A stretch of 64,000 bases of DNA, from positions 115,940,001-116,004,000 of the forward strand of contig OZ024742.1 of the NCBI GenBank assembly GCA_964016885.1, read 5' to 3'. Below the pieces are notes generated by a model. It saw only the letters and a program-made list of their open reading frames with translations. It was not told where the DNA came from and searched no databases. The stretch is from Eledone cirrhosa (Eukaryota). Below, piece by piece: positions 2,620 to 54,183 of this stretch (position 1 is the stretch's first letter; each line of letters begins with the position of its first letter). The translations under genes and the position numbers were made by a program.

Positions 2620-4415
2620 CTATTGGGGTGATAACCCGTTTAGTTTTGGTTTAAATTTGTTAAGGAATACATTTTCTTTGTTTATTCTTTGTTGCTGTGT
2701 GAACGAATCTGAGCACTTGTAGAAGGGGAAGATTTTAAAGTTGGGTAGTGTCATTCCTGCGCAGTTCGCAATATGGCTGCTCAAGGGGATTTTTCTTGTG
2801 TTAGCGTCCCAGATTTGTTGGCGGTGGATGGTCATTCTTTTGCGTAATGAGGTGCCCGACTGTCCTATGTAGTTGTGTTTGCACCCACCGCAAGTTATTG
2901 CGTAAATCAAGTTCTCCGAGTTGCAGGTGAAATTGTTTTTTACTGTAAATGTTTGGCCATCTTTAAATGTAAATGTTTGTCCTTCAGTGAGGTAGAGGCA
3001 CGTTCCACAGTTTGTTCTACCACATTTGGTAACTGTAGGGTTTAGGATTGGTTTGGGTATATTTGGTCCAGTGAGAATGCGTTTTAGTGATTTGGGTTGT
3101 CTTTTACTTTTAAGGATCTTGTGTGTTTCAAGAATAGACTTCATTTTTACATCTTTAAGTAGGATGGGGAGGTTTTTGTGTAGGTGATCAAACATTTCGG
3201 TATTTCTGGGGTTGAAAGTGGATACATATGGCAGGGTGTTGAGTGTGGTTTTCTGTTTTGGATTGTTAAGTTGATGGGGATTTAGGTGTTTTGCCCTGTC
3301 TATTCCATTGTTGATTATTTCAAGTGGAACGGCTCTTAAGATATGGGTGTCTTTTAGTTCCTTTAGTCTTTGCTCCCGTTTAGGTAGATCTGATACTATG
3401 GTACATATACGTTTGGCCAAATTGAATGTTAAGTTTTGTATGTTTTGGGTGACTTGATATGAAAAAGAGGTATTGCTTGGAATCTGTGGGTTTATAGAAT
3501 ATATCTGTATCTAATTTCCCGTCTATTACAGAGATGAGAAAATCCAAGAAGGCTAATTCCTTGGGATTGGATTCCATTGTGAATTGTATGTTATTATATA
3601 TGTTGTTTATCATGTTTTTAAACATAGTAAGTGAGTTCATGTCTTCTTGCCATAGGATAAAGCAGTCGTCTAGATATCTTTTCCAATTGGCTTTGAGGTG
3701 TGTGTGGAAAGAGTCTCCAAATAAGAGAAGGGACTGACTGTATATTTGTTGTTCATGGAATCCCATGACTAGGTTGGCATATGTGGGTGCTATTTTCGTG
3801 CCCATTGCCTTACCTGATACTTGTCTGTATGTTGAACCATTGAATGTGAAGTAGTTATTTTGTAGGATAAAGCGGAGTCCGTCAGTGATAAAATCTTTAT
3901 TGATGCGTGTCGGTATTTCTGATGGGTGTGTGTTAAGCCAGTATTGGACTGATGTTATTCCATAGTTGTGGGGTATGTTTGTGTAGAGGTTTATTACGTC
4001 AAAGGAGACAAGAATTGTATTTGCACTTACTGTTTTAGGGAGGTGTTTCAGCATGTCAAGGTCATCTCGTATGTAGCTCTGTATATGTTGTAGAAAGGGT
4101 TTCAGTAGGATGTTCAGAAAGTTGCTAAGTCTGTGGGTTTCACATGTAGGGCCTGCTATATTTGGCCTGAGTTTTAGGTCTTCTGGTGGTGTTAGTTCAA
4201 TGTAATTGTTGGTTGAGGTGTCACATGCATCGTTTATGGGTTTACATTTGTGGAGTTTCGGTAAGCCGTAAAAAGAGCTTGTATTGCATTTGAAGTGGCT
4301 TATATAGTTAAACTCTTTTGTGGTTAAGCTGTTGCGGTATTTATTCAGTAAGGTCAAAAGGTTACCCATTGTTTTGGTGTGTTTGTAGTTTTCTGTTTTT
4401 TCATAGTATGTGTTG
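2620..4415 (-). mobile_element. 5'-truncated Neptune-like Penelope retroelement, RT + GIY-YIG, one frameshift near 3410
   Basis: ORF 3380-4495: FYGLPKLHK, LVSFDVINLYTNI, GKAMGT, WKRYLDD, FYKPT. ORF 2620-3420: CGRTNCGTC linker, NLIYAITC..C..NYIGQS, KLN. 5' end runs into (TA)n. Confidence 0.92.
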
Positions 4416-4418
4416 ATG

Positions 4419-4453
<35 letters not shown>

Positions 4454-5642
4454 AAATATATATGTATGTGTGTGTGCATGTGTGTGTGTGCGCACGTGTG
4501 TATTTCATTTGATGTGCCGGAAATATATTTTATGAAAATCATTTCCCTTTCATTTATTTTTGTTTTACATTATTTCTTAAATTTTGCTGTTTGTTACTTT
4601 GGTTTAAATTCTTTTTTCTCTATCGCTAGGAACGTTTCGGTGACAATTCACTTTCTCAGTATATTCATTAAAATTATTATCTTACTATACTTCTCACTGC
4701 CAGCGCTGAATCAGTCATAATCCCCATGCTCTCTACTAGGTTGTTACAAGATCCAATTAGCATATTGTTGAGGGGTCTTTTCCATTCTTACTTAAGGCTG
4801 TTTCTATGCTGAATCGATTTCTGTCAAACAGTCGACAATGGCGAGGCTGGGAGGCAAACATTTCCAGTGAGAAATAAGTTCTTCTCTTCTTTATCTACAT
4901 TCATCCTTTCATTGATTAATGCTGTTTGTTATTTCTAATTTCATTTTTTTTTCATTTTCCTTTACTTGTACCGTTTCCGGGATGTTTTTATATTCTTACA
5001 TAGAAGGTTTCTTCAGTCCAGTGTTATTTTCTATCGGATTCTTCACATTCTCAGGACTTATCTTCTGTTATACTGATTAATGTTCGGCTGTGAATGATCA
5101 AATCCTTCCAGGACTTGTTATCAATATATGAATAATATATGTTGTGTCTCTTTGTTACCTACTTGTTTCCTTGTGGATTTAATCTGATTCTGAATCTTTT
5201 CATTGCTACAGCGCAATTTTTTCAGCTCAACCATTTGCAGGGTTGTGCATAAGTAGTCAATTTAATAAAGGATGCTCATATCGGTTGACGTTGTTGTTGT
5301 TGTATATGTATTATGTGTATTATCTTGTTATTCGTCAATGTACTGTCAAAGGTTGACTCACGGGATTTTCCCCACTAAAGCAACACAGGATCTTTCATAA
5401 AGTAATGCCACTTTTGTAATTATTCGTATTTTCCTCTGCAATGATTCATACTAATATATATGTTCATGTGTGTGTATTGAAAAAGGAAAATAAAACAAAA
5501 GTCGATGAAAGGTTCTTAATGGGATAATTGTTTTACAATCGTGTCAGAAGAGTAATTAATCTTGATAAATCGATATCTTAACTGGTAGTGGTTATGTCAC
5601 CACCTGTTTCTAGTATTGATATCCTAGCTCTATTGTTCGATG

Positions 5643-6119: not shown

Positions 6120-6192
<73 letters not shown>

Positions 6193-6480
6193 CAAATAAC
6201 GAAACGAAATTAAATTTCGTTTCCTTTGTAACTCACTTTTGTATGACTGACGCTTAAACAATTAAGTTAAAAATGTACATCCACATATGTATACTGAAAT
6301 ACTAGTATGCATATGAATACACACACGTATACATATGTAGATGTACCAAGTTTTTCACTGGTCACTTTACTGTGAGTGTCCAGCTATTCTGTATGTAAAC
6401 ACACAGACAAATCAGTTTTTAGAGTCATACTGGTTTTTGAGGAAACACCTTTCCTCTATTCTCCAGAAAGCCAGACAAGG

Positions 6481-6525
6481 AATATTGAACTAGTTTCGTT
6501 GTTGTTACAACTCATCAGCAATATT
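6481..6525 (-). ncRNA. Minimal type I HHR, intact core (family C)
   Basis: aatattg-CTGATGA-gttgt aaca acaac-GAAAC TA GTT-caatatt; 7-bp helix I, 5-bp helix II. Confidence 0.92.
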
Positions 6526-7110
6526 TACCTATCTTCCGGCCTTTCTGGAGAATCGTAAAAGCACATATCGTTATATGCTTTTTCTATGAAAATTAGTAGT
6601 GGGCAGACTAATTTGCATAGAGTGTGAGTACGTATCGGTTCAACGGAGACGATAAAAACAAATAACGAAACGAAATTAAATTTCGTTTCGTTTGTAACTC
6701 ACTTTTGTATGACTGACGCTTAAACAATTAAGTTAAAAATGTACATCCACATATGTATACTGAAATACTAGTATGCATATGAATACACACACGTATACAT
6801 ATGTAGATGTACCAAGTTTTTCACTAGTCACTTTACTGTGAGTGTCCAGCTATTCATATGCATACTAGTATTTCAGTATACATATGTGGATGTACATTTT
6901 TAACTTAATTGTTTAAGCGTCAGTCATACAAAAGTGAGTTACAAACGAAACGAAATTTAATTTCGTTTCGTTATTTGTTTTTATCGTCTCCGTAGAACCG
7001 GTACGTACTCACACTCTATGCAAATGAGTCTGCCCACTACTAATTTTCATAGAAAAAGCATATAACGATATGTGCTTTTACGATTCTCCAGAAAGGCCGG
7101 AAGATAGGTA

Positions 7111-7155
7111 AGTATTGCTGATGAGTTGTAACAACAACGAAACTAGTTCAATATT
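7111..7155 (+). ncRNA. Minimal type I HHR, intact core (family C, inverted arm)
   Basis: agtattg-CTGATGA-gttgtaacaacaac-GAAACTAGTT-caatatt. Confidence 0.92.
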
Positions 7156-7370
7156 CCTTGTCTGGCTTGCTGGAGAATAGAGGAAAGGTGTTTCCTCAAA
7201 AACCAGTATGACTCTAAAAACCGGTTTGTCTGTGTGTTTACATACAGAATAGCTGGACACTCACAGTAAAGTGACCAGTGAAAAACTTGGTACATCTACA
7301 TATCTATACGTGTGTGTATTCATATGCATACTAGTATTTCAGTATACATATGCGGATGTACATTTTTAAC

Positions 7371-7438
<68 letters not shown>

Positions 7439-7640
7439 ACGTACATACATATATGTATACAGACGTACAATAGTATGTATATATATATATATATACATAC
7501 ATGCACATATATATATATGTACGTATGGATTCACCGAACATTTATTATAATGCTCGGTGTGTTTTTAAACAAATATCCCGAATTAAGCCGTACTGTGTCT
7601 AGCAACCATCGTTGCTCATTTGTTCAACACTGACAAAGGA

Positions 7641-7683
7641 ACGCTGTACTAGTTTCAAGCATATTAGCTATCGTCAGCAACGT
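7641..7683 (-). ncRNA. Minimal type I HHR (family B, unit 1)
   Basis: acgttg-CTGACGA-t-agc taatat gct-t-GAAAC TA GTA-cagcgt. Confidence 0.88.
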
Positions 7684-8073
7684 ATACCTTCCTACCAGAT
7701 GGTTGAACGTGTGAAAATATTTACTTTCATTATGCATATTAACGGCTGAGCAGCCTAATTTGCATACCGAGTGAGTTAATCGGCAGGGGTACCGAAAACG
7801 ATAAACGGAAAAAATGAAACGAAATTTCATTTCTCACTCTTAGTAAGGCTGTTACTTAAATATAAGTATGTATACGTACATACAAATATGTATACAGATG
7901 TACAGTAGTATGTATATATCTATATATACATACATGCACACATATATATATGTACGTATGGATTCACCGAATATTTATTATAATGCTCGGTGTGTTTGTA
8001 AACAAACATCCCGAATTAAGCCGTACAGTGTCTAGCAACCATTGTTGCTCATTTGTTCTACACTTACACAGGA

Positions 8074-8116
8074 ACGCTGTACTAGTTTCAAGCATATTAG
8101 CGATCGTCAGCAACGT
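8074..8116 (-). ncRNA. Minimal type I HHR (family B, unit 2)
   Basis: Same motif 433 bp from unit 1, one helix II change. Confidence 0.82.
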
Positions 8117-8485
8117 ATACCTTCCTGCCAGATGGTTGAACGTGTGAAAGTATTTACTTTCATTATGCATATTAACGGCAGGAGCAGCCTAATTTGCATA
8201 TCGAGTGAGTTAATCGGTCGGGGTACCGAAAACGATAAACGGAAAACATGAAACGAAATTTCATTTCTCACTCTTAGTACGGCTGTTACTTAAATATAAG
8301 TATGTATACGTACATACATATATGTATACAGACGTACAGTAGTATGTATATATATATATATATGTACGTATGGATTTTCCGAACATTTATTATAATGCGC
8401 GGTGTGTTTGTAAACAAACGTCCCGAAATAAGTCGTAGAGTGTCTAGCAACCACCGTTGCTCATTTGTTCAACACTGACAAAGGA

Positions 8486-8528
8486 ACGCTGTACTAGTTT
8501 CAAGCGTATTAGCTATCGTCAGGAACTT
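8486..8528 (-). ncRNA. Minimal type I HHR (family B, unit 3)
   Basis: CTGACGA...GAAACTAGTA core intact, helix I weakened. Confidence 0.75.
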
Positions 8529-8650
8529 ATACCTTCCTGCCAGATGATTTTCGCTACCCAGACCGATTTCTCACTCGATATGCAAATTAGGCTGCTCAGC
8601 ATAATGAAAGTAAATGCTTTCACACGTTCAACCATCTGGCAGGAACGTAT

Positions 8651-8693
8651 ACATTGTTGATGATAGCTAATAAGTTTGAAACTAGTACAGCGT
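8651..8693 (+). ncRNA. HHR (family B inverted arm), C3 to U variant
   Basis: acattg-TTGATGA-tagctaataagttt-GAAACTAGTA-cagcgt. Confidence 0.7.
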
Positions 8694-8979
8694 TCATTTG
8701 TCAGTGTTGAACAAATGAGCAACAATGGTTGCTAGACACTGTAGGGCTTAATTCGGGATGTTTGTTTACAAATACACCGAGCATTATAATAAATGTTCGG
8801 TGAATCCATACGTACATCTATATATATATGTGTGCATGTATGTATATATATATATATATATATACATACTACTGTAAGTCTGTATACATATATGTATTTA
8901 CGTATACATACTTATATTTAAGTAACAGCCGTACTAAGAGTGAGAAATGAAATTTCGTTTCATTTTTTCTGTTTATATA

Positions 8980-9012: not shown

Positions 9013-9190
9013 TAATAAAAGGAATTCCAACTTTTATTAACTCCTTTTATTTACAATCATTTAAAATTATAATGATATTATAATGAAATAGTATGGGAGA
9101 ATATTAAAAGGTAATCGAACAAGTACTTTCATGCTTTCGCAATCTTCAGATTCATATTCAGGGGTGACAGTCAAGTATACAATTATAAAT
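9013..9190 (-). mobile_element. Family A element with HHR at 9117-9153
   Basis: gaat-CTGAAGA-ttgcgaaagcat-GAAAGTACTT-gttc on the minus strand. Confidence 0.78.
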
Positions 9191-9214
9191 GTATATGTAT
9201 ATATATATATATAA

Positions 9215-10333: not shown

Positions 10334-10930
10334 ATATATAAATATAAATTAGCGAGAATCGTATTTCGGCTATTGGAATTTAGCGAAAAACAACTTCCGA
10401 ATGTGTAGCAAGCGCTCAATAGATTCTAACGAACCAGAACTACAACATACTGTAAAAGGCCAAACACACTGAGACGATTGGTAAACCATTATCCGCTCAG
10501 CCATATTAACGACCAAGTAATTCGGGTCAAACAAATAAAAAAATATAATCGAATAATTTACACGGACCCCTGGATGGTTGTTGAAAATCCAGCATTTGGG
10601 TTTCTGCGACTCCTAAATCAAGTACTGTCGGCTTAGACAAATAATGCTAAGCTTTTGGTAAGATGATTGAACAAGGTCTCACCAGGTTTTAGTTCAAGTG
10701 CCAGGCCAAGGATTGACCGTTACCAATACCCATGTGGGGCTCGGCAAGGGAGGCAACACTTTTTTTGGCGGATGAAATTCAGTATGTGTAACATTGCAAA
10801 ATTGCAAAATATCACAGAACGAATTAAGTTCTCAACAGAATGTATATATATGTATATATAGATTTATATAAATATATATATATATATATATATAATATAA
10901 GATAAAAACATGGTTAAAAGAGTTCCATGT

Positions 10931-10999
10931 ATTTTATTATGCGCATTTCAAAAACAAATATCATCATGAGATGACATTTGCGTTTTCGTCAGATAAAAT
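10931..10999 (-). ncRNA. Type I HHR with palindromic GCGC loop III
   Basis: attttat-CTGACGA-long helix II-GAAAT GCGC ATA-ataaaat. Confidence 0.9.
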
Positions 11000-11127
11000 G
11001 GGGATACATGATATGAAGGTTAAAAAACACTTGTGAATAGTGAAGTTTTAAATCAACATATTTAAAACGTGTTGATTTAAAACTTCACTATTCACAAGTG
11101 TTTTTTAACCTTCATATCATGTATCCC

Positions 11128-11198
11128 TATTTTATCTGACGAAAACGCAAATGTCATCTCATGATGATATTTGTTTTTGAAATGCGCATAATAAAATA
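11128..11198 (+). ncRNA. Type I HHR with palindromic GCGC loop III
   Basis: tattttat-CTGACGA-aaacgcaaatgtcatc tcat gatgatatttgttttt-GAAAT GCGC ATA-ataaaata. Confidence 0.9.
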
Positions 11199-11341
11199 TA
11201 TTGAACTCTTTTTACCATTTTTTGATCTTATATTATTTATACTCCAGTCCTACACACTGTAGAATGCTACTTATCCGATATCTGCATTGCCTTATTGTAC
11301 TACAATAAAACTCACCTCCTACATTATATATATATACATAA

Positions 11342-11827: not shown

Positions 11828-12191
<364 letters not shown>

Positions 12192-12257: not shown

Positions 12258-12263
<6 letters not shown>

Positions 12264-12856
12264 GGAAAAAATGAAACTAATTTTTTTTTCTCACTCTTAT
12301 TACGGCTGTTACTTAACTATAAGTATGCATACGTATATACATATATGTATACAGACGTACAGTAGTATGTATATATATACATACATGCACACATATATAT
12401 ATGTCTGTATGGATCTACCGAGCACTTATTGTAATGCTCGGTTTGTTTGTAAATAAACATCCCGTATTAAGCCTTACAGTGTTTAGCAACCATCGTTGCC
12501 CTTTTGTTTAACACTGACAATGGGACGATGTATTTGTTTCAAGCTTATTAGCTATCGTCAGCACCGTATATCTTCCTGCCAAATGATTGAACGTCTGAAA
12601 GTATATACTTTCCCTATGCATATTAACGACTGGTATGCATATTAGGCTGCTCAGCCGTTAATATGCATAAGGAAAGTATATACTTTCAGATGTTCAATCA
12701 TCTGGCAGGAAGGTATACAGTGCTGACGATAGCTAATAAGCTTGAAACTAGTACATCGTTCCTTTGTCAGTGTTGAACAAAAGGGCAACGATGGTTGCTA
12801 AACACTGTACGGCTTAATTTGGGATGTTTGTTTACATGTTCGTATACATACTTATA
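12258..12856. mobile_element. Family B fold-back copy; HHRs at ~12525-12566 (minus, degenerate) and 12717-12759 (plus, intact core)
   Basis: Inversion at ~12635; gtg-CTGACGA-tagctaataagctt-GAAACTAGTA-cat. Confidence 0.85.
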
Positions 12857-13941
12857 TAAATATATATATATATATTTCCATTAGTTGAATACTTTTCACG
12901 ATCTCATTCGCATCTTTACCATTAATTCAATGTATATTTATTCGATTAGGTATCCCCCTGCCTCCTTGGAATTCATTCGCTATATACTATACGATATTGT
13001 CTTCATATAGTGAAGGCATGGTTTGAATGTAAGTGTCTTGCTTATGTGGATTACATCCAATATGAATCTGACCGGGGTGGTGAGGACCCTTCTAGCAGCG
13101 CTTGGGGCGCCTTCAGTGCTTGAAAGTAAATTAGATTTCCCTTTACTCCAGTATACCGTAATACTCTGAACGTTCGGTGGGCTTTTGGGCGCTTTGAGTA
13201 TTGGGGTGTCGCCATTTTCAGTTGTTGTTGTTAACCGCCGTACCATACCACTTATACTCTATAGTGCGTACTCCATAGGAATATAAAATTGAACTACTAG
13301 AGGATCCCAGAGCGGATAGTGGCTTCGCTTAGATTAACTAACATTATGTTATTTGTTTATTTGGTTTACACAACTCTATAATTAAATTCATTACCGTAAC
13401 TGGTCTTTCTAATTGGTAATTGGCTAGCATACAATACTTCACCGGCCAACTGTAAGGACTCTACTTATTTAATTAAATGCAAACAATTTTAAACATTCAG
13501 TTTTAATTTTCGATTCTTAAAATTAACCCTAACTTTAACTTCTAAACAATTTTAACCTGTAATTTCTTTTAAGCTCTGAATTTTCTCTACTTGGTGTGTT
13601 CCTAAATTCGCCCCGGCTGTTGTATACTTTCAGTGAGTATATAGACCTTTAGTAACACGATATTCTTCACCCCTTCCACTTTTCCGGCCGAAGGTTGTTC
13701 AAATTGAGAGGTAGTTGTGATTCTCCCAATAAGCTATACATCGCTCTACCCGCTTAGGGTAGTATCTGTTGAAGATAATTCATTCAGAGACGTCGGAGCA
13801 TTATAACAACATGCTTCTTCGATAGACTCTGGGTCAAAAACATAAGCACACATTTTCTCTTCTCCGTTCTTTGCTTGGTTCCTTAAATCTTTTAGAATGT
13901 GTTTACCATGATTCCGTTGGTATACATCTTTTACGCAATTT

Positions 13942-25505: not shown

Positions 25506-25534
25506 TTTGAATGGATACAGTTTAGTTGAAAGGA

Positions 25535-26223
25535 ATTTATTGACACGTGTTTCTATAACAGTTACATAACCTAAAACAGCTGCTATCTACAAACTTTTAG
25601 TTATGCAGACATTCAATATTTCAATGTTATTATTTACTGTCATTTCTTCAGAATAATATTACTGAGGACCTATTTAGTTTTTATAGAGAATATTAGGAGG
25701 GAGGGGTGAAGTTTTAGAAGAATAGTTGAAGGAGTGGTTTTTCGATAGCAGTGAGAATTCTTGGTGGCAGTGAGTAATTAGATTCCCATCTGTTGTTTTG
25801 ACATTTTTTATAGAATATATTATTGGTTATTTTTCTAAATCTATAGAAGGATTAGTGATAGTAAAGATATGCGTGGTTGGTTTTGTGTTTGCACTTAATT
25901 AACATTCAGACTTAAATTGTTCTTTCAAGTGTACGTATCCTTTCACCCACGCATTCACACAAAAATATATTTGCACACCTCTACAAAATACATATACTCA
26001 CAATTCACATATTCATACTTACATATATATACATATGCATACACATATATATACACACATGTATTCATGTACATACATACGCGCTCATGTGTATACATTT
26101 TCATACTCAACTTATCTTTATATACACACGTATAGACACACACACATATACATACATACTCTAGTCCATGTGTACACACATACACATACATACACATCTA
26201 TATACACATATATACATACATAT

Positions 26224-26302
<79 letters not shown>

Positions 26303-26920
26303 CACTTTAATACATGAATACACTTACATCTAACTATACACATCAAACATATATATATATTTACTTATTTATATACATTTTCACATATATATACATACTT
26401 ATGGACGTTTTTAGACACATTCATTATCGCATATTTGCACCTATTCTCATCAGCATATCTTTCCATTATTAGTGTGGTAATTTAAGGTTATTAATATATG
26501 TTGAGAAGAGATTGTTTTTATATTTTTCTAACTAGATTATGGTTTATATAGTTGGGGGATGTCCCTCTTTTATGTAATATTCGGCTTGTAGTGGGAAAAA
26601 AGGGTTTTAGTTCTGTGACGGCAGAATAATGTTCGTTCAATTCTGTTATTCAGCAGTTTCTTCTTGTGTGTGATTATGTAATAAATCTCAAGATTACACA
26701 ATTTGCAGAAAGTTTGGCTCCTGGAAAAGCTTTGGGTTTTAGCTAATTTCTCCCATTTTAGGGTAAACTTTTGATCGCTATCCCTGAGCGTCCAAGCTTT
26801 TTCTGCTAAATTGTTACATTTCTTTGGCTCTGGTGTTTTATTGAGTAAGCATGCCTATATAATCGAGATTTAAACGATGTTGCCGTTGATCCCACGTAAT
26901 ACCACTCGTTGCCTCCGGAT
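25535..26920 (-). mobile_element. PLE family H 3' part (GIY-YIG C-terminus, 3' UTR, HHR at 25611-25654)
   Basis: FCKLCNLEIYYII...LLNNRIERTLFCRH; att-CTGAAGA-aatg..catt-GAAATATT; homologous to 50370-51895. Confidence 0.8.
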
Positions 26921-29680: not shown

Positions 29681-29793
29681 AAACACGCACACACACAACA
29701 AACATACATAACGGTACATACACACATACATCTATACAATTATATATATATAGATATTATTATTATGTAATAAACAACATAAGGCAATTATTC

Positions 29794-29847
29794 CATTTAC
29801 CAGTGGTTTCTTAAAAGCAAAAGGTTTTGCTTTCAATCCTCAGAATG
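29794..29847 (-). ncRNA. Type I HHR, intact core
   Basis: catt-CTGAGGA-ttgaaagcaaaa cc ttttgcttttaa-GAAACC ACT GGTA-aatg. Confidence 0.9.
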
Positions 29848-29863
29848 AAAAACCAGGATTTTT

Positions 29864-29918
29864 CATTCTGACGATTGAAAGCAAAACCTTTTTGCTTTTA
29901 AGAAACCACTGGTAAATG
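29864..29918 (+). ncRNA. Type I HHR, intact core
   Basis: catt-CTGACGA-ttgaaagcaaaa cct ttttgcttttaa-GAAACC ACT GGTA-aatg. Confidence 0.9.
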
Positions 29919-30034
29919 GAATAATTGCCTTATGTTGTTTATTACATAATAATAATAATTAAGCTCTGTTGCATACATAGAGCACTCTTTTTTCCTGCAC
30001 GTTTCCGATGGAATTACTTCATTCATACATATAT

Positions 30035-30065
<31 letters not shown>

Positions 30066-30080
30066 TATAGATAGATATAT

Positions 30081-30503
30081 AAATATACACGGGTGTGTAT
30101 GATTGTGTATAGAAGATTATATTAATAAAAGGAATTCCAACTTTGTCTGATTTACTCGTTTTATTTACAATCCTTTAAAATATTTAATGGTATTAGAATG
30201 AAATAGTATGGTAGAATATTAAATGTTAAGTGTTAATTGAACAAGTACGTTCATGCTTTCGCAATCTTCTGGTTGATATTCTGTGGTGACACTCAAGTTT
30301 GCAATTTTCAAATGTTGAAAATTGGAAACTTGACTGACACCACACATCATGAAACTGAAGATTGCGAAAGCATGAAAGTACTTGTTCAATTAACACTTAA
30401 CATTTAATATTCTACCATACTATTTCATTCTAACCATTAAACATTTTAAAGGATTGTAAATAAAACGAGTAAATCAGAATAAGTTAGGATTCCTTTTATT
30501 AAT
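30081..30503. mobile_element. Family A fold-back; HHRs at ~30239-30275 (minus, degenerate) and 30351-30387 (plus)
   Basis: Centre caattttcaa-atg-ttgaaaattg at ~30313. Confidence 0.85.
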
Positions 30504-31791: not shown

Positions 31792-32105
31792 TAAGAATAC
31801 GTATTTAAGAAAGCCACAACAATGCAAAGGGAAATCTCGAGGTAGGAAGTGAAATATAGATAGGAAAAACAGGTGAAAGTGAAAATTGAGAGAGACAAAG
31901 ATGAAAACAAAACAAAGGTAGAAGGGTTACCGTAGTAGAGATTTAATCCCGGGATTAAATCTCTACTACGGTAACCCTTCTACCTTTGTTTTGTTTTCAT
32001 CTTTGTCTCTCTCAATTTTCACTTTCACCTGTTTTTCCTATCTATATTTCACTTCCTACCTCGAGATTTCCCTTTGCATTGTTGTGGCTTTCTTAAATAC
32101 GTATT

Positions 32106-32109
<4 letters not shown>
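31792..32109. repeat. Perfect 318-bp palindrome, 159-bp arms, no spacer
   Basis: Centre atttaatccc|gggattaaat at 31950/31951; no mismatch seen between arms. Confidence 0.95.
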
Positions 32110-32179: not shown

Positions 32180-32639
32180 TAATTGTAGGGTCCAAGCCGT
32201 ATGAAGAACACAATGTAATCCGTATGTAGATGTCGTGAACCAAAGTTTAAAATACAAAATTTCAACGATATAATTCATTGGAAGCAGACTCAAAATAATA
32301 TAAGCAGTGAAAACAATGAAATTAAACAAAATACGGGTAATTCATATTAAAACTCACTATTTTACGTTCGTTCCTGGGGGGTAGTTCTCCGTATCTTCAT
32401 TCTACTAATACTCACATTCGTCTTTCCTACCCGCCTCTTCAGAAATAAGATTATTTCTAAAGACGGCGGGTAGGAAAGACTATGTATATGTTCTTACTTT
32501 GATAATTTGTATTATATTTTACCTAGATCACTAGCAGAATGAAGATACGGAGAACTACCCCCCAGGAACGATCGTAAAATAGTGAGTTTAACTATGTATT
32601 ACCCGTATTTTGTTTAATTTCATTGTTTTCACTATTTGT

Positions 32640-32643
<4 letters not shown>
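32180..32643. mobile_element. Fold-back element with long-helix-II HHR variants at 32358-32447 (minus) and 32452-32581 (plus)
   Basis: tattt-CT(G/A)AAGA-ggcgggtag//ctaccccc-GGAAC GA(T/A)C GTA-aaata; 3' tail homologous to 61790-62190. Confidence 0.75.
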
Positions 32644-35568: not shown

Positions 35569-38500
35569 TTGCTGCCATTAACAAACAAACAAATTAACAA
35601 CACACCAAAACAATTAAAACCATCCACTCTCGCCTCAACATGTTTGCTTAACGGCCAAGGCATCAACCCTTCCACCAATACTCAAAAATGGAAGATCAAA
35701 TTCCTGGAGGACATGGTTGATGTCCATCCAAACCACATCCCTTTCTTCGTCCTCACTGAAACCCATCTCAGTAACCTCCACTTGGAAGCCGCGGTGAAAG
35801 TGAAAAATTTCAAAGCCATCCGTGCTGATCGCGCTGGCAGAAGAAAGGGTGGGACTGCCATTTATGTCCATAATTCTTTCTCAACAGAGGCTATGAACAT
35901 ATTTTCTAATGGATACTGCGAAGCAGTCACTGTATTCAGTCAAACCAACAACCTAATAGTAATTGGGCTCTATAGGCCACCCCAAAAGCCTCTACCATGA
36001 TTCAAGGAATGCCTCAACAGCATAAAGTATTTCATCCAAGAGTGTCACCCTGACAACATCTTAATGATGGGGGACTTCAACCTCCCCGGAGTTGACTGGT
36101 CCACAAACAGCCTGCCACCAGGTTCTTCTGCCTCAACCTCTAACAGGGAAGCAGTGGAATCGCTTCTTGACTTCATGGATGATTTCTTCCTGTCCAAACT
36201 GGTGCTCGAACCAACGAGGTGCCACAAAAACGTCCTAGACTTAAATTTCAGCAATCACACTGACACTATCCACAATATTGCAGTAGAGAAAACTACTCCC
36301 TGATCATGACATGGTTCTCTATGATCTGAGATTCCACCATCCAATATACAAACCCAATGTCATCTCTCCTGTCCATCCGTTTGACACTATGGATTTCCAT
36401 AATGCAAACTGGGAAGTGATCAGTCATGATCTTGCACATGTCGACTGGTCCTTCACGCACACTGACACACCCACTAACATCAAAATGTCCTGGAAGACAT
36501 TTGTGGACACTGTTACAAACATATGTGCAAAACACAACCCATTAAGAACTATAAACAAATCTAAGAACAGAATCCCTAGAAATAGAAAAACGCTCATCAG
36601 GAAAATTAAGAGAACTAACAAAAAATCAACAAGCTGAAATACTGTCAGCAGCAACACACCAACTTGACTGCCATTTCATCACTAGAGATTAAAACACATA
36701 ACCTCCAAAAGAATATGATGTCTATCATCAACAATCAAATAAGAGCTGAAGAGGCCTGGGCCATTGAGAAGATCAAACTCAATCCCAAAGTCTTATTTTC
36801 ATTTGCAAAAAAACACAAAATCACTGGCTCTACTGTTGGCCTACTAATTGATGAAAATGGCACTCCTCAAGACAATGCTAAAACCATGGGTGAGATACTG
36901 CAGAAACAATACTGCTCTGTTTTCAGCAATCCTGATATGGCCTATCTGGGCTGTATCGGCTATGTTACTCCCCATTACACCTTATCGGACACAACGTTTG
37001 GCGCCCCTGATGTCTTAGCGGCAATAAAGGAAATCAAGCATAATTCAGGAGTAGGTCCCGATAGGTTCCCTGCTTGTGTCTTGAAGGCGTGTCAACACCA
37101 ACTTGCATCTCCTCTTGCCAATCCGTGGCGGAACTCACTAGATGCTGGATATGTGCCAGAAAACCTTCTATCCCAGTCTGTTGTCCCAGTTTTCAAAAAA
37201 GGAAACAAATCCCTTGCCGCGAATTACCGTCCAATCACACTCACCTTTCATATCGTTAAGGTATTTGAGAGAGTGGTGAGATCGCGAATGGCTCACTTCC
37301 TTGAGAGTAACAATATGCTGAACTCCAACCAGCATGGATTCCGTAATGGAAGGGATTGCCTGACGCAGCTACTTCATCACTCTGATGACATTTTGAGAGC
37401 CTTGGGAGAGGGTTCCTTCACTGATGTTATCTACCTTGATTTCAGCAAGGCCTTTGATAGGGTTGATCACAACATTCTACTGAGAAAGCTGTCCAATATT
37501 GGTGTCACTGGAAAGCTGCTGCAGTGGATCAAGTGCTTCCTGTCAAACAGAACCCAACATGTTGTAGTCGAAGGAGTCAGATCCAGCCCAGCCAAAGTCA
37601 TTAGTGGGGTCCCACAAAGCACTGAGTTGGGCCCACTTTTCTTCATCATCTATATTAATGACATCACTGACATCATCAAACACAGCAACATTAGAATTTA
37701 CGCTGATGATTCCAAGCTCCAGAAGGTCATCAATGGCATGGATGACCGGATAAGCCTTCAGTCAGACCCAATGGGCGGAAAAGAACAACATCGTACTGAA
37801 CGAAGACAAATTCCAAATGACCCACTTTGGAAAAGAGGATGCTCTGAAACTCCCGTACCCCTTCCCTCCGGTGAAACTCTCGTGACATCTAACAACATCA
37901 GAGACTTCGGAGTAACTGTGGACAGCAACATAAGCTGGGCCACGCATATAAGCAGCAAATTTGACATGGCCCGCAGAATGTGTTCCTGGATCCTCAAAAC
38001 CTTCCAGTCGAGAGATTCCCACACCATTATCCTTCTCTTCTCCACTTTTGCTCGACCACATCTTGAATACTGTTGTCCAATGTGGTCTCCCCATACGAAA
38101 CAAAGTATCATAAAACTTGAAGCTCCCCAAAGGGCAATCACCAAAAAGATAGATGGCATGTCAGACTTTGACTACTGGGGTCGACTAGAAAAGCTGAAAC
38201 TTTACTCGCTCCAACGTCGCCGTGAGCGTTATATTATCTGCATTATGTGGAAAATGTTTCATCAGCACTCTCCAAATGATGTTGGCATCACCTTCAAAAT
38301 ACACCTAAGGCTTGGGCCCCGTGCTATCCGTCCCAAACAAAAATCTAATTCACTACTCATAACAACAATACGGCACAATTATTTCACCTCAATTGGCCCT
38401 GCTCTCTTCAACATCACACCAGGACACGTCAAAACAGAAACTGACCACACAAAATTCAAGATGTCTTTGGACAAATTCCGCCAAGTAATCCCGGACAAAC

Positions 38501-38571
38501 CACCCACACCCGGATATGTCTCCGCAAACAGTAATTCCCTTCTCGAATGGGCCATGGTGCCCAAATCCTGA
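35569..38571 (+). pseudogene. LINE ORF2: apurinic-like endonuclease + reverse transcriptase, with stops and frameshifts
   Basis: LTETHL, RADR..RKGGTAIYV, LYRPP, MGDFNLP, LDL..S; NYRPITL, QHGFR, YLDFSKAFDRV, SGVPQS, YADD, RPHLEYC. Confidence 0.93.
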
Positions 38572-39130: not shown

Positions 39131-39140
39131 ACATATAATA

Positions 39141-39361
39141 ACAGAACACACTCACTGTTTGGTTGGTTTTCGCTTCTGTATCTTTTATATCAGTTAATTT
39201 ATTCGGTCCTCAATGTTTACCATTGACTGACTAACGGTCAAAAATACAGATATAATATAGACACGAACACATATATATAGTTTTTACAAAGTTCTTTCGT
39301 TGCACATCTGCAACATCGTCAGTGTTGCTATTATGTTTACTCCTGTTGTAAATGTTTGATT

Positions 39362-39408
<47 letters not shown>

Positions 39409-39442
39409 ACTATGTGTGTAGTTATGTGTATGTATATATATA

Positions 39443-39524
<82 letters not shown>

Positions 39525-39792
39525 CACATATATGACAGGAGGAAACATAGTAGCACCACTGACGTTGTTGCAGATGTGCAACGAAAGAACTTTGTAACAC
39601 TATATATATGTGTTCGTGTCTATGTTATATCTGTATTTTTGACCGTTGGTCAGTCAATGGTAATCATTGAGGAACGAATAAATTAACTGAAATAAAAGAT
39701 ACCGAGGCGAAAAACAACCAGACAGTGAGTGGGTTCTGTTATTAATTCTAGCAATATTATTACAACAATATCTCACTCCCCAAGTATAACAA
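39141..39792. mobile_element. Two inverted PLE family E pLTR fragments; HHRs at 39286-39325 (minus) and 39555-39595 (plus)
   Basis: CTGACGA-t-gttgca gatg tgcaac-GAAAG AA CTT (right copy has CTGACGT); microsatellite between the arms. Confidence 0.82.
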
Positions 39793-39871: not shown

Positions 39872-39875
<4 letters not shown>

Positions 39876-40059
39876 GAAAATTGCAAACTTGACTGTCACC
39901 ACACATTATGAACCTGAAGATTGGGAAAGCATGAAAGTACTTGTTCGATTAGCACTTAACTTTTAATATTCTATCATACTATTTCATTATAATACCATTA
40001 TAAATGTTACAGGATTGTAAATAATACGAGTAAATCAGACAAAGATGGAATTCCTCTTA

Positions 40060-40063
<4 letters not shown>
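39872..40063 (+). mobile_element. Family A element with HHR at 39910-39946
   Basis: gaac-CTGAAGA-ttgggaaagcat-GAAAGTACTT-gttc. Confidence 0.8.
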
Positions 40064-40158
<95 letters not shown>

Positions 40159-40162
40159 ATAT

Positions 40163-43100
40163 TTATACTTGGGGAGGGCCATATGTGTGTAATATTGCCA
40201 GAATAAATAACAGAACCCACCAAACTGTTTGGTTGGTTTTCGCTTCTGTTTCTTTTATATCGGTAATCTAATTTATTCGGTCCACAATGTTGCCATTGAC
40301 TGACCAACGGTCACAAATCATACAGATACAATATAGACGAAAACACATATATATAGTTTATCAAAGTTCTTTCGTTGCACATCTTCAACATCGTCAGTGG
40401 TGCTATAGATTACTCCCGTCGCATTGTATTTCTACGCCATCTTTATTTAGTTGTGTTTATATATTTATTTATTTATTTGTTTGTTTGTTTATTTTATTTT
40501 GTCTTCTTTGCGCATGCGTTTGCGTGTGTGTATAGTGTTTTGTTTGATGTGTGTTCGTGATTGGGTGACTGTGTATTGGTTAATGTATTCTATATGTTTA
40601 CTAGTGTGTGTTTATATGTTTGTTGTTATTGTGCTTGTGTATGTATTTATTTATTTATTTATCTATTTATTTATTTATTTATTTATACCTCTCTTAGGTC
40701 AGTGTTGTTTGTTTGGGTGTTGTTGTTATTCCATTCATTCTTTCTGTTTAGTCTTAGCCTTCTAAGTTCTATTTCACTGGCCTCTCTGATTTGCCTATCT
40801 GCTGGGTCATTTCTATGTTTAGATATTATTCTAATTTCCATGTTGTCTATGTTACCGTCGTGTTGTTGTCTGGCATGTTCGTATAGTACTGACACGTTTT
40901 TTCATCCTTTTAGTTCCCCCCAGTGTTGGTCTATCCTTTCACCTATGCTACGAGCTGTCTCGCCTATGTATGTTGTTGTATTGTTTCTGCAACTACCCTC
41001 TGTACATCTTATGCTATAGACTACGTTTCTAGTTTACAGTTTATCCGGGGGTTTACCTTACATATGATACATTTCCTATAAGTACAGTGGGTTTTCTTAA
41101 AAGGGTAGGTTTTGCTGATCAGGGATTTTATGGTGGTTCCTGGCTTTTCTACCACCTTAATCTTTAAGTGGGTCTTTCTCGGGGCCTTTCTCCACTGGTT
41201 AGCTAATTTCCCTCCAGGGGTAGCATCCACAAACATGACACTCAGATATCTCCGGTTGTCGTACCATGAGGTGGCTTTCCCTATCTTATGTCTAGCCCTA
41301 TCTAAGCTATTCCAGGATTTGCTCCTGATTAATGGGAACATTCCTTTCTAGTCCAGTTCTATGAGGGTCTCATACTTCTCCATGGCTCCTTCGTAAACTC
41401 TGACTATGTCTCTTTGGTTGTTGTCATAGGACTGCATGTGGTTGCTGAAGTGTTAGATGTGTCTTTCCATTTCTGTTGGGTCGCACATGCGGGATACGTT
41501 CTTCATCACTCGTACCAAATCTGCGATCAGAATATTAAACTTAGCACTACTGGACACTGCTGAGTTTTTGAGCATCAGGTATTTGGAGGCCATGGGTTTA
41601 GCATAGTGTGAGTGGAGAATTTGGACTCTCTCATCTATAGTGTTAATCCAGAGTTCCGTGTCTTATACAGGTAGTCTATTGTTAGGGTCTTTGGAAGGGT
41701 AGTCGATAGTTACAGTTATACACTGGTGTATGGAATTAGCTATCTGCTGGATGCTTTCCATTGTGCTACGTTCTAAATCAAACTTGTTAGTGCTCTCTAC
41801 TGGGGATGTTCTTATAACTATATTGATATCGTCTACGTAACGAGAGTACATGATGAGGTCTATGGAGCTCTCATTAAGGAGATCTTTAAGTCTCCTTTCC
41901 CACCATGCCATAAAAAGGTTGGCAACATCACCAGCTATGCTGACGTCAATGGCTGCTCCCTCATTTTGGGTGTAGATCTTCTCGTTGAACTTGAATATGT
42001 GGCCCTTTAGGCTAGTTTTGATACTAGCCCCTATTGCATGTGCGACCATTTTTCTTACCTGATCATTGTTTTGGCGGGTCCGTATAGCTTTGGTCCACCC
42101 AATCCACCTTCCCATGGGCGTCTTGTTTGCATGGAGGTTATGGTGGGGGTGTACCTCGTATGGGTCTACTAGGGCAGAAACTTCTAAGGTCATGGCTCTC
42201 TAGGTAGTCAGTCTCGTATTTAAGTCTAAGTAGGAGCCCCAGTTCGTCTGTGTCGACGTCGCAGAACTCCACTTCACTCCCAATGATCATCTCCACACAT
42301 TTTTCCACAGCAAAATCAATGTTAATGGATGGGTACAGTGATACCACATCCATGCTGCCTATTATGCAGTTGGATAGGTTCCTGTTTTTGTTGTACTCAC
42401 TGATTCTGCTGAGGAGGTCCTCTGTACTGTCACATACATCTGGGGACATCTTGATTATGGGGCGTATAACCACTGAGAGGAAGTAGGAGATCCTGTAGTT
42501 GCTAGCTATATTAGCTCCGCAAATGGGTCTTGTTGGTGGTCTTGTTGTCGGGTCGTCGACTGTCTTGTGGTCTTTGCGGAGCCCATACAGGATGGTATGC
42601 CATATGTTAGACGCCTGGAAGTTGTTGGCAGTGCGTCTGCTTGGCTTTAGGATGTCAGTCCACATCATCATGTGAGCGTTGATGATTTTCTCTCTCCCAT
42701 CGTGTGTTTGTTGTGCAATTTCGCTCCTGTTGGTGATGTGGGGTTGCATTAACTTGATGTAGTTCGGCATGCTATCTACTGACATCCTACCCGACTTATC
42801 CGTGGGTAGACATACTACCTCACCATCCCTTGTGCGCTGCTTGAGGCTAACCAAGCCTTCTATAGGTTTCCTCCCAAGTTGTTGGGCCTCTGGTTTGCTC
42901 TGTCTCTTAGTATACCGGTCTACTATTTGTTAATCTTATTTCTAGCTATGGTGAACTGTGACTCTGTCTCGTCATCTATTTGTTGTGGTATGCAAACTAT
43001 TTTATTAAAGGGTAACCTCGTAGGATAGTTATTACCCATCTTATATGTTTTGTCAGCTGGGTTGAAAAATAGTTTCTCTAGGGGGTTGTCATTATATCTA

Positions 43101-43860
43101 TCGTCATAGTTGCGTGTGTTGCTATTATTGTTATTATGGTGGTTGTTGTTGTTCCTATCATTAGCATTATTATTATTGTTATGATTGCTAGATGTATTGT
43201 TGCTGTTGTGATTGTTGTTTACATCACCGTTATTGTTGTTGTTACTGTTATTTCTACCATTATGGTTGTTACTTTTATTATGTTTCTTGTTTTTGTTGTG
43301 CCTATCATTAATGTTGCTACATGTATTTTTCCATTATTACCACTGTGGTTGTTGTTTTTGTTGTTCGTATTGTTACCGTTATTACTACTGTGGTCGCTGC
43401 TGCTGTGTCTGTGGTTAATGTTTCTATTATTATTATTATTGTGGTTGTCGTTGTTGTTCTGTCTCTCGTTAGTATTATTACCATTATTACTATTTCTCAC
43501 TCTCCTGCTATTGTTATTGTTATGGTTGTTATTCCTATACTCGGAGTTATTGTTTATATTACTACTACCGTTATTATTGTTGTTGTTGTAGTTTACTTTT
43601 GCATTCCAACGTATTTTTGTCAAACACTCTTCCAGCTCCGTTTTGCAATCAATAGGTTTAATATTTTTATAGATGGCAAATTTTGGTGGTAGCTGCAGGA
43701 TTTGTTGTTCTTGTTCACCGATTAAAGTGTTCCCATAAATATTTACTGTGTGGTCATTGGCAAATTCTTCCGGTAGTTTTACATCAGTCATACGGATATT
43801 GTTGATGTTATCTTGGTATTTTTGAGAATATTCTATTTTCCTTTCTTGTAGTTGTTTATC
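40163..43860 (-). mobile_element. PLE family E, left arm: N-terminal region with poly-Asn tract, RT, GIY-YIG, pLTR with HHR at 40360-40401; frameshifted
   Basis: LPPKFAI, PTDKSG, IIGSMDVVSLYPSI, YSRYVDD, EASEI...LNRKNEW. Confidence 0.92.
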
Positions 43861-46266
43861 CTATTTCCACTCGATAGTTATATGCCCCATAATCAAGATG
43901 TCCCCAGATGTATGTGACAGTACAGTGGACCTCCTCAGCAGAATCAGTGAGTGCAACAAAAACAGGAACCTATCCAACTGCATAATAGGCAGCATGGATG
44001 TGGTATCACTGTACCCATCCATTAACATTGATTTTGCTGTGGAAAAATGTGTGGAGATGATCATTGGGAGTGAAGTGGAGTTCTGCGACGTCGACACAGA
44101 CGAACTGGGCCTCCTACTTAGACTTACTTACGACACTGACTACCTAGAGAGCCATGACCTTAGACGTTTCTGCCCTAGTAGACCCATAAGAGGTAGACCC
44201 TCCACCATAACCTCCATGGCAAAAAAGACTCCCATGGGAAGATGGATTGGGTGGACCAAAGCTATACGGACCTGCCAAAACAATGATCAGGTAAGAAAAA
44301 TGGTCGCACATGCAATAGGGGCTAGTATCAAAACTAGCCTAAAGGGCCACATATTCAAGTTCAACGAGAAGATCTACACCCAAAATGAGGGAGCAGCCAT
44401 TGGCGTCAGCATAGCTGGTGATGTTGCCAACCTTTTTATTGTAAGGTGGGAAAGGAGACTTAACGATCTCCTTAATGAGAGCTCCATAGACCACATCATG
44501 TACTCTCGTTACGTAGATACGTAGACGATATCAATATAGTTATAAGAATATCCCCAGTAGAGAGCACTAACAGGTTTGATTTAGAACGTAGCACAATGGA
44601 AAGCATCCAGCAGATAGCTAATTCCATACACCAGTGTATAACTGTGACTATCGACTACCCTTCCAAATACCCTAACAATAGACTACCTGTATTAGACACG
44701 GAACTCTGGATTAACACTATAGACGAGAGAGCCCGAATTCTCCACTCACACTATGCTAAACCCATGGCCTCCAAATACCTGATACTCAAAAACTCAGCAA
44801 TGTCCAGTAGTGCTAAGTTTAATATTCTGATCGCAGATTTGGTACGAGTGATGAAGAACGTATCCTACATGTCCGACCCAACAGAAATGGAAAGCCACAT
44901 CCAACACTTCAGCAACCGCATGCAGTTCTCTGGCTACAACCAAAGAGAAAGAGCCAGAGTTTACGAAGGAGCCATGGAGAAGTATAAGACCCTCATAGAA
45001 CTGGACATGAAAGGAATTTGCCCATTATACAGGACCAAATCCTGGAATAGCTTAGATAGGGCTAGACATAAGATAGGGAAAGCCACCTCATGGTACGACA
45101 ACCGGAGATACCTGAGTGTCATGTTTGTGGATGCTACCCCTGGAGGGAAATTAGCTAACCAGTGGAGAAAGGCCCTGAGAAAGACCCACTTAAAGATTAA
45201 GGTGGTAGAAAAGCCAGGAACCACCATAAAAACCCTGATCAGCAAAACCTACCCTTTTAAGAAACCCACTGTACTAATAGGAAATGTATCATATGTAAGG
45301 TAAACCCCCGGATAAACTGTAAAACTAGAAACGTAGTCTATAGCATAAGATGTACAGAGGGTACTTGCAGAAACATGAAAACAACATACATAGGCGAGAC
45401 AGCTCGTAGCATAGGTGAAAGGATAGACCAACACTGGGGGGAACTAAAAGGAGGAAAAAACGGGTCAGTACTATACGTACATGCCAGACAACAACACGAC
45501 GGTAACATAGACAACATGGAACTTAGAATAATATCTAAACATAGAAATGATAGGCAAATCAGAGAGGCCAGTGAAATAGAACTTAGAAGGTTAATACTAA
45601 ACAGAAAGAATGAATGGAATAACAACAACACCCAAACAAACAACACTGACCTAAGAGAAGTATAAATAAATAAATAAATAGATAAATAAATAAATTGATA
45701 AATAAATAAATAAATAAATACATACACAAGCACAATAACAACAAACACATATAAACACACACTAGTAAACATAGAATACATTAACCAATACACAGTCACC
45801 CAATCACGAACACACATCAAACAAAACACTATACACACACGCAAACTCATGCGCAAAGAAGACAAAATAAAATAAACAAACAAACAAATAAATAAATAAA
45901 TAGATAAACAGACTAAATAAAGATGGCGTAGAAATACAATGCAACGGGAGGAATCTATAGCACCACTGACGATGTTGCAGATGTGCAACGAAAGAATTTT
46001 GATAAACTATATATATGTGTTTGTGTCTATATTGTATCTGTATGATTTTTGACCGTCGGTCAGTCAATGGCAACATTGAGGACCGAATAAATTAGATTAC
46101 CGATATAAAAGACACAGAAGCGTAAAGCGAAAACCAACAAAACAGTGAGTGTGTTCTGCTATTAATTCTGGCAATATTACACAAATATGACCATACCCAA
46201 GTATAACAATATTTGTTTCGACACACGATTTCATATAAAAAACCTCGCAAAACTAATTCATCGCCG
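43861..46266 (+). mobile_element. PLE family E, right arm (inverted, more 5'-truncated) with pLTR HHR at 45962-46003
   Basis: ORFs 43898-44524, 44596-45303, 45375-45665 (YIGETARS..ER..H); reverse complement of 40163-42490. Confidence 0.93.
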
Positions 46267-46338
<72 letters not shown>

Positions 46339-46952: not shown

Positions 46953-46994
46953 ATTTATATATATATATATATATATATACACATACACACACAT

Positions 46995-47310
46995 ACACAT
47001 ATATGCATACACAAATAAACGCATGTACAAAAAAACATACGCATACATACATACGGCCACTCATACAAATACGTACATACATACACTCCTAAATATACAC
47101 ATACACACAGACACATATATACAGTATAAAGATGAATAACGCTCTACATGCTTAATTCATCTTTATACTGTATATATGTGTCTGTGTGTATGTGTATATT
47201 TATGTATGTATGTCTGTACGTATATGTATGAGTGGCCGTATGTATGTATGTGGATGTTTGTGTGTACATGCGTTTATGTGTATATGCGTATATGCGTATG
47301 TATAAATAAA
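46995..47310. repeat. Low-complexity fold-back repeat
   Basis: cagtataaagatgaat...attcatctttatactg around ~47145; catacggccactcatac mirrored in both arms. Confidence 0.72.
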
Positions 47311-47446: not shown

Positions 47447-47549
<103 letters not shown>

Positions 47550-47760
47550 CGTTTCTGAATTTGTTTAGCCAGATTCTTTATCTGAAATCGTGTGTTGAAA
47601 CCGATATTGTTATACTTTGGGAGGGTCATGTTGCCAATAAGAAACACACACACCAGTTGCTTTCACTTCAATTTATTATAATAAATTTATAATAAATTTA
47701 TAAATTTATAAATTTCTGGTTGGTTGGTTGGTTCCACAACCAGATAGTTGTTTATAAATT

Positions 47761-47803
47761 GTCATAGTTCTTTCGTCACACACTCTGTGACCTCTTCAGT
47801 GAC
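47761..47803 (-). ncRNA. Minimal type I HHR in family D pLTR
   Basis: gtca-CTGAAGA-g-gtcaca gagtg tgtgac-GAAAG AA CTA-tgac. Confidence 0.9.
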
Positions 47804-48006
47804 TGGGGATTCCTTTCTCTGTTTCTGTGCCTCTCCTTTGTTGTGTCCTACGCAATTTTGTTTCTGTGAGTGTGTGTTGTGTGCTCAGTCTGCGCATGCG
47901 CCACATCCGGGTGTCTGTGTGTGTTTATGTTCATTTATTTATTTGTTTATTTACATGTTACTGGTTGGTTGTTTGTTCTATATGTGTGTGTGTTTTCATT
48001 TTGTCC

Positions 48007-50088: not shown

Positions 50089-50258
50089 CCGACATTCTGC
50101 CAGAATTGTCTGTCGGAAAGCATGCTATCTCTTCATTATGTGAGCAACCAACCAGAAATTTATAAATTTATAAATTTATTATTAATTTATTATAATAAAT
50201 TGAAGTGAAGCAACTGGTGCGTGTGTTTCTTATTGGCAACATGACCCTCTCAAAGTAT

Positions 50259-50342
<84 letters not shown>

Positions 50343-50369
50343 ATACTTTGGGAGGGTCATGTTGCCAAT

Positions 50370-51020: not shown

Positions 51021-51071
<51 letters not shown>

Positions 51072-53738: not shown

Positions 53739-53744
<6 letters not shown>

Positions 53745-54150: not shown

Positions 54151-54183
<33 letters not shown>

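Follow-up and report, generated by a model that had tools for sequence, protein, structure and literature searches.

A family of non-coding hammerhead repeats in Eledone cirrhosa with the insertion layout of Penelope-like elements

Non-LTR retrozymes of metazoans, including newt satellite 2 and axolotl Rtz331 and Rtz353, are described by Cervera and de la Pena 2020 (PMC7229834), where a link between retrozymes and Penelope-like elements (PLEs) was also proposed. Li, Clavereau and Pollet 2026 (10.64898/2026.07.22.740005; hereafter Li 2026) argue in their main text that PLEs give rise to and move vertebrate non-LTR retrozymes, on the basis of distribution and co-occurrence and of similarity to PLE terminal repeats (pLTRs). 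Up to now, the mover of animal retrozymes has been argued from co-occurrence and sequence likeness. Term searches of the main texts found no tail, inversion or insertion-end analysis in Li 2026, and the words inverted, microsatellite and target site are absent from that of PMC7229834.

PLE insertions have hallmarks of their own, which Craig 2021 (PMC8557442) gives as partial tandems, an inverted 5′-truncated copy, a tail at one end and (TA)n targets; the origin of the inverted structures is undefined in that account. A PLE protein studied in vitro acts on both strands, cutting and extending them with a preference for ATT, and it starts at two internal RNA sites, the tail being the stretch between them (Frangieh 2024, PMC11167929). 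In the open-access literature, which was the scope of our search (subscription papers, Repbase and Dfam lay outside it), we found no paper on retrozyme tails or inverted arms or on a two-primer model for PLE inversions.

Here we analyse a window, by which we mean a whole stretch of 64,000 nucleotides of Eledone cirrhosa DNA, that holds insertions of two repeat families, B and C. At the locus under study family C has a 466-bp unit, present in 1.43 copies (6188-6855) that face 1.13 inverted copies (6851-7376). This bears out the original prediction of a 466-bp repeat that continues as an inverted copy through TATTC; of the bounds given there the start at 6188 stands and the end at 7377 is corrected to 7376. 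The features are as follows, with the neighbouring B insertion last.

6152..6187, no strand: left (TA)n target tract, with (AC)n directly before it
6188..6653, minus: full monomer L1 of the left arm, unit 1-466; the RNA sense is minus, with the 3′ terminus (6188) called the "long end"
6188..6259, minus: 72-nt tail, equivalent of the PLE tail, found only at the long outer end; hairpin at about 6198-6226
6465..6536, minus: type I hammerhead of the left arm, core from 6518; Rfam Hammerhead_HH9, E 2.9e-7
6611..6618, minus: octamer ATGCAAAT, within 12 nt over which B and C are identical
6624..6702, minus: predicted three-way RNA junction over the monomer boundary
6654..6855, minus: partial second monomer L2 of the left arm, unit 1-202, 5′-truncated in the RNA sense
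6851..6855, no strand: TATTC common to both arms, at the head-to-head junction
6851..6982, plus: partial monomer RA of the right arm, unit 132 to 1
6983..7376, plus: monomer RB of the right arm, covering unit 466 to 73; the 3′ terminus (7376) is called the "short end", at AATT
7018..7025, plus: octamer of the right arm
7100..7171, plus: hammerhead of the right arm, core from 7118; Hammerhead_HH9, E 1.1e-6; predicted cut after 7148
7377..7435 (right bound approximate), no strand: (TA)n tract common to C and the neighbouring family B insertion
7435..8976, no strand: family B insertion with a 433-bp unit, 2.6 units in minus sense and one in plus; short end left, long end right

Read along the inverted arm, 6982-6851 corresponds to unit 1-132 and 7376-6983 to unit 73-466. 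Both C arms point outward in the RNA sense, so the junction joins two 5′-truncated ends and the outer ends are 3′ ends. The arms measure 668 and 526 nt, and both extend beyond the ribozyme cut site. Monomers L1 and L2 differ at 2 of 202 positions and the inverted arm departs from the left copy at 9 of 394 (2.3%), in agreement with the scattered substitutions noted earlier. Homology of at least 5 nt occurs at 0.8% of all 466 × 466 possible inversion junctions of the C unit (chance about 0.008), and TATTC is compatible with forward continuation and with the inverted donor alike. Any target-site duplication is masked by the microsatellite. Inside the unit, which has a GC content of 0.35, the longest ATG frame is 50 aa and none exceeds this; the RT and GIY-YIG frame of autonomous PLEs is absent from the unit, such frames lying elsewhere in the window.

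On its sequence features, C would be classed as a new family of a known kind, the non-LTR retrozyme. It resembles the metazoan non-LTR retrozymes of PMC7229834, as described there, in its short tandem unit, GC content of 35%, lack of an ORF and strongly self-paired monomer, in a type I hammerhead with a weak palindromic helix III suited to dimers, and in the presence of autonomous PLEs in the same genome. The 466-bp unit slightly exceeds the 150-450 bp of that account and lies within the 51-972 of Li 2026. Unlike those retrozymes as described, the copies in the window are 1-3-mers that carry inverted arms, end at fixed sites and sit in (TA)n targets. The insertion is in turn like those described for EN+ PLEs (Neptune, Hydra, Naiad and Poseidon; PMC8557442, PMC3846280, PMC11167929) in its partial tandem, inverted 5′-truncated copy, one-sided tail, (TA)n target, 5′-junction microhomology and two internal start sites; it differs from them in having no RT or endonuclease frame, a tail of about 60-72 nt and a hammerhead fuller than the minimal PLE form. 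The Chlamys non-autonomous elements such as MRC1, by the description in PMC8557442, share with C that they are non-coding, multicopy head to tail and inserted in PLE fashion, but they are algal, mostly lack hammerheads and have 3′ similarity to known autonomous partners. Element class and insertion layout are each already known, and the union of both is the useful part.

Both Hammerhead_HH9 matches score below the gathering threshold, at which Rfam gave no match, and many miRNA matches were set aside as they track TA-rich hairpins. Each of the two C units that span the hammerhead has an intact core (CUGAUGA and GAAA, helices I and II). In the left arm helix I has 7 bp on a long extended stem and helix II 4-5 bp, and in the C hammerhead the self-complementary ACUAGU stands where a stable helix III would be. 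From hammerhead numbering, the left-arm cut is predicted after GUU, between 6488 and 6487. Two C cores co-fold as a double hammerhead at -17.0 kcal/mol, versus -6.8 kcal/mol for a single core. The cut triplet of C is GUU, with GUC in 7.5% of the depth of public run X1; GUU is a weaker triplet for hammerhead cutting. The dimer-type arrangement of C has been described for most metazoan type I motifs (PMC4209133, PMC7229834), and the main text of Li 2026 (10.64898/2026.07.22.740005) reports that only one of nine Xenopus dimers cleaved. The same paper calls a locus "active" when it holds two consecutive same-strand hammerheads. These are absent at C, which has one hammerhead per arm on opposite strands, and under that rule the C locus is an offspring copy rather than an active array; the adjoining B locus has three hammerheads in a row.

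As a circular monomer, the RNA folds with a z of -11.4 for C (against 100 shuffles) and -5.5 for B, and the linear right arm of C with a z of -6.3. The predicted fold over the monomer boundary is a three-way junction closed by the helix GUGAGU/ACUCAC, in which 6697-6702 pairs with 6624-6629, and it would comprise a tail hairpin (6664-6692) and a U-rich linker with the long-end site at 6654. The same closing helix is predicted in both C and both B junctions that were folded. The motifs gagtgagt and ctcact are the two strands of this one predicted helix, and gataaa is the long end, the main insertion end, where 3 nt match the TA target; the original prediction, which lists these motifs in its module order, noted neither this nor the fixed outer ends. 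Of the shared motif given as gagtg.gagt, the exact form is found in C and a shorter gagtgagt in B. Because the closing helix forms only where the RNA runs beyond the long end, initiation would be internal, and because both arms go beyond the ribozyme cut site, the template would be a circle or an uncut multimer.

We next turn to the relation of C to B. The two units align colinearly with 68% identity over 418 columns (z 15.7), and the likeness persists beyond the ribozyme and the TA-rich stretch (z 7.2, 3.4 and 3.9). Compensatory changes, which the original prediction proposed to look for, alter both partners in 8 of 23 hammerhead-domain pairs, whereas controls with slid partners give 0-3; the comparison covers eight B/C copies of two families from which the structure itself was drawn, and one of the eight pairs comes from within B. 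Together with the alignment, this covariation upholds the view of B and C as sister families. Family B has a U-U at the base of helix II, as described for HHR_Amex2 in PMC7229834.

A single (TA)n tract does lie between the two insertions, from 7377 to about 7435, and serial insertion into it is supported. The B arms at 7435-8976 differ at 19 of 260 positions (7.3%) and those of C at 2.3%, so C is probably the later arrival, which would have gone into the left-hand TA tract of a B insertion already present. A further repeat family also adjoins TA tracts (9013-9192, 1003-1254, 30065-30501 and 39872-40062), and one of its copies touches the right TA tract of this B insertion, which makes it the third element to have landed there.

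An inverted 5′-truncated copy is present likewise at all three B loci of the window. At 53741-54154 the left arm covers only unit 1 to about 43, the initial part of the tail, and the right arm unit 58-432, without overlap. At 12260-12857 the arms comprise unit 1-382 and unit 195-404 plus about 62-80, each holding sequence absent from the other, and they carry 14 and 3 derived changes, with polarity taken from copies in the window. The right arm of this insertion (12815-12857) skips from unit ~195 to ~80 and ends at the short site; the skip is an internal deletion or a template jump soon after initiation.

The outer ends are where the layout is most regular. In C the left end falls at unit 1 and the right end at unit 73, about 70 nt apart on the unit. 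In each of the three B insertions the homologous long site forms one end, and the opposite end lies some 60-65 nt inward. All four B/C insertions of the window thus pair a long end with a short one (chance 0.06 for two sites used at random), and all eight outer ends adjoin TA repeats. The resulting one-sided tail is 72 nt in C and about 60-65 nt in B, longer than the 30-40 of published PLE tails. Two RT-coding elements of the window, at 40157-46267 and 47544-50262, also have an inverted copy and one-sided tails (53 and 64 nt) and lie on simple repeats.

Public run X1 contains 1073 contigs on the C unit with several independent (TA)n-joined ends, depth there not being copy number, and C is a high-copy dispersed family. 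Among the best 6 of 38 loose ends in X1, those best supported as continuing into (TA)n are at 6652 (12 contigs), 6721 (5) and 6726 (2), which are unit positions of about 1, 68 and 73. Unit end joins unit start, as a tandem or circular joint from 6855 to 6390, in all three runs with contigs. The sequencing runs listed for the unit included none of RNA, and their 16 organism labels were rejected as a host range, since the raw reads of run X22 (organism B, 1,938 million letters) include none that match the C unit and runs X4 and X5 hold only 2 and 1 contigs on it. Two pattern scans of metagenomes found no loci. The C arms agree in their subfamily alleles at seven sites that are polymorphic in X1 and different in X4.

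Both C arms and four B copies keep the octamer intact, and it is also one strand of a predicted hairpin whose partner strand varies. Newt satellite 2 has an snRNA-type promoter, according to a citing passage in PMC2220036. Promoters of this type combine an octamer with a proximal sequence element at proper spacing. At the identity of B and C a 12-nt identical run is no surprise, so an octamer promoter is a lead only. A stretch of C resembling a proximal element, by a vertebrate motif, was dropped because it has no counterpart in B. One 416-base contig (record 11 of run X5) spans the C unit circularly minus the octamer-bearing 6582-6631.

The window holds several other elements. On the minus strand at 2623-4760 lies a broken PLE in which RT (PF00078) and GIY-YIG (PF01541) do not share a frame; it has a Neptune-like CxxxxCxxC linker, and a hammerhead-like motif stands upstream at 4659. 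The two RT-coding PLE-type insertions named above are related, about 70% alike and with head-to-head arms; their hammerhead-core motifs are at 45966, 40397 and 47799, and solo terminal repeats are found at 39136-39792, 11828-12044 and near 9893. The 3′ parts of a third PLE-like family (50340-51700 and 25530-26920, both minus) lack the inner cysteine pair in their GIY-YIG-like motif and are Hydra-like as that family is described in PMC8557442, and the end of this family has a short motif in common with the short end of the two RT-coding elements. Isolated minimal PLE-type hammerhead motifs stand at 31262 and 61633 (plus), with TA repeats about 120-140 bases later, and a 650-codon open frame at 36619-38570 (plus) appears to encode a non-LTR retrotransposon protein. 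Fold-back elements lie between TA tracts at 31794-32107, 10894-11324, 29755-29957, 30123-30501, 32298-32641, 46991-47301, 55712-55958 and 62357-62685; that at 31794-32107 forms a perfect palindrome of 314 bp, extended by 40 nt on one side, and that at 29755-29957 has hammerhead-core-like motifs on both strands. No PLE terminal repeat like B or C is present within the 64-kb window.

Taken on its sequence and layout, C is very probably a PLE-mobilised retrozyme insertion, and we lean, with moderate confidence, towards an origin of its inversion from two primers. The reading we prefer, to about the same degree, is of a non-coding non-LTR retrozyme moved in trans by a GIY-YIG PLE, with two target-primed cDNAs joined. 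Read-through transcripts would self-cleave as double hammerheads and perhaps circularise, and a PLE RT/endonuclease would bind the structured tail region and nick both strands of the (TA)n tract. The RNA template would be circular or multimeric, with priming of one cDNA at the long-end site and of another at the short-end site, which lies about 70 nt further 5′; each would extend for a variable length, in C the 668 and 526 nt of its arms. The two cDNA ends would then anneal by a few common bases and repair would finish the insertion; the duplicated (TA)n may be reused as a target, placing B beside C. The GUU cut triplet, the single cleaving dimer among nine in Xenopus, a tail longer than published ones and the lack of a PLE terminal repeat like B or C in the 64-kb window weigh against this reading. 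In L1 twin priming, credited to Ostertag and Kazazian in 2001, two target strands reportedly each prime a cDNA and the two products are joined head to head, often with microhomology, and the second priming site is said to vary, the first being the poly(A) end. Unlike L1 twin priming, the sites in C and B are both fixed and internal, and the arms can exceed one unit.

A single cDNA could also yield an inverted copy if its 3′ end annealed at a microhomology to its own earlier part and extended, the endonuclease cutting at the second fixed site and the PLE machinery being unchanged. This fold-back fits C equally well, because the arms are in hairpin register (a 65-nt loop, with RB equal to L1 at unit 173 and RA to L2 at unit 37), all subfamily alleles are alike and the differences look private and even: probably 4 in L1, 1 in L2, none in RA and 6 in RB (p 0.12), where polarity at three sites was deduced from unlisted differences and an alternative reading puts 8 of 11 on RB. 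A right arm with 8 of 9 derived changes, which would exclude fold-back, was dropped, as omitted differences near the ends of stretches fit unit 225, 227 and 173. The 5-nt microhomology at C, the short end at AATT, which contains the ATT preferred by the lizard PLE endonuclease (PMC11167929), the attribution of the tail to endonuclease resolution in Craig 2021 (PMC8557442, as described there) and spacer-free perfect palindromes elsewhere in the window (e.g. 31794-32107) are also in its favour. At B locus 7435-8976 the right arm moreover shares two derived alleles, both at CpG-type sites, with the in-register left monomer, which is what fold-back predicts and is counted against the two-primer model. 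At B loci 12260-12857 and 53741-54154, however, the arms are not nested and neither contains the other, so simple fold-back is excluded there; the longer arm, too, starts at the short end in B 7435-8976 and at the long end in C, and each site would have to serve as both start and stop. Two joined target-primed cDNAs explain all four loci by one rule and fold-back explains two, and we regard fold-back as unlikely. The microhomology template switch of the original prediction keeps its 5 nt at C (p 0.008) and fails as a fold-back at two of the three B loci. Junction microhomology, read by eye as 2, 1 and 2 nt at the three B loci, passes only weakly as above chance, with p 0.02 including C, whose junction was selected for its microhomology, and 0.22 excluding it. 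Across the window 14 of 68 segments between (TA)n tracts have an inverted self-match, 9 of the 14 with one flush and one extended end, most of them being without a second copy to define the junction.

Other origins for the head-to-head repeat have less in their favour. Self-priming on an antisense RNA template before integration was proposed for rotifer Penelope, where Arkhipova 2013 (PMC3846280), in the passages concerned, argues from palindromes at inverted junctions. Its head-to-head geometry matches C. The route is nonetheless very improbable: the arms of C are separated by 65 nt at an asymmetric junction, self-priming predicts neither a pair of fixed outer ends nor arms without overlap, and in vitro the lizard protein starts at target nicks and copies RNA of the sense strand (PMC11167929). 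That the B/C units are solo pLTRs of an autonomous PLE outside the window, rather than independent retrozymes, has in its favour that their architecture is that of PLE insertions and that Xenopus retrozymes are related to pLTRs in the main text of Li 2026 (10.64898/2026.07.22.740005). We think it improbable given the direct unit-unit joints, found in all three contig runs and, at 1.43 and 2.6 copies, within the window, the lack of an ORF above 50 aa and a hammerhead with helix III and a long helix I, unlike the minimal PLE form; it concerns present status only, an origin of B and C from a pLTR being likely. Were the inversion a chimera made in assembly or in the library, or a satellite rearranged at the DNA level, the absence of its joint among the joints listed for the runs would be accounted for, although a joint at a single locus would fall below the 2% threshold. 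This is hard to credit when the two arms disagree at 9 of 394 sites, the right end sits on a site that recurs in X1 (among the best 6 of 38 loose ends) and the same layout is found at three B loci and in two RT-coding elements.

On the part played by PLEs, the main text of Li 2026 and the present analysis reach the same conclusion, there with pLTR similarity and here with no matching pLTR in the 64-kb window; the supplements of Li 2026 may hold consensus sequences related to B and C. We put forward tentatively, at a little under even confidence, that B and C are compact cis-elements which reveal the way PLE enzymes construct tandem/inverted insertions, that a conserved three-way RNA junction sets two fixed starts, that both strands prime, and that the cDNAs, at times from different RNAs, join head to head, which would be direct evidence for PLE integration of hammerhead retrozymes, possibly with an snRNA-type promoter of their own. 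With its two ends mapped, a family that is short, young and high in copy number makes retrozyme mobilisation and PLE inversion alike testable.
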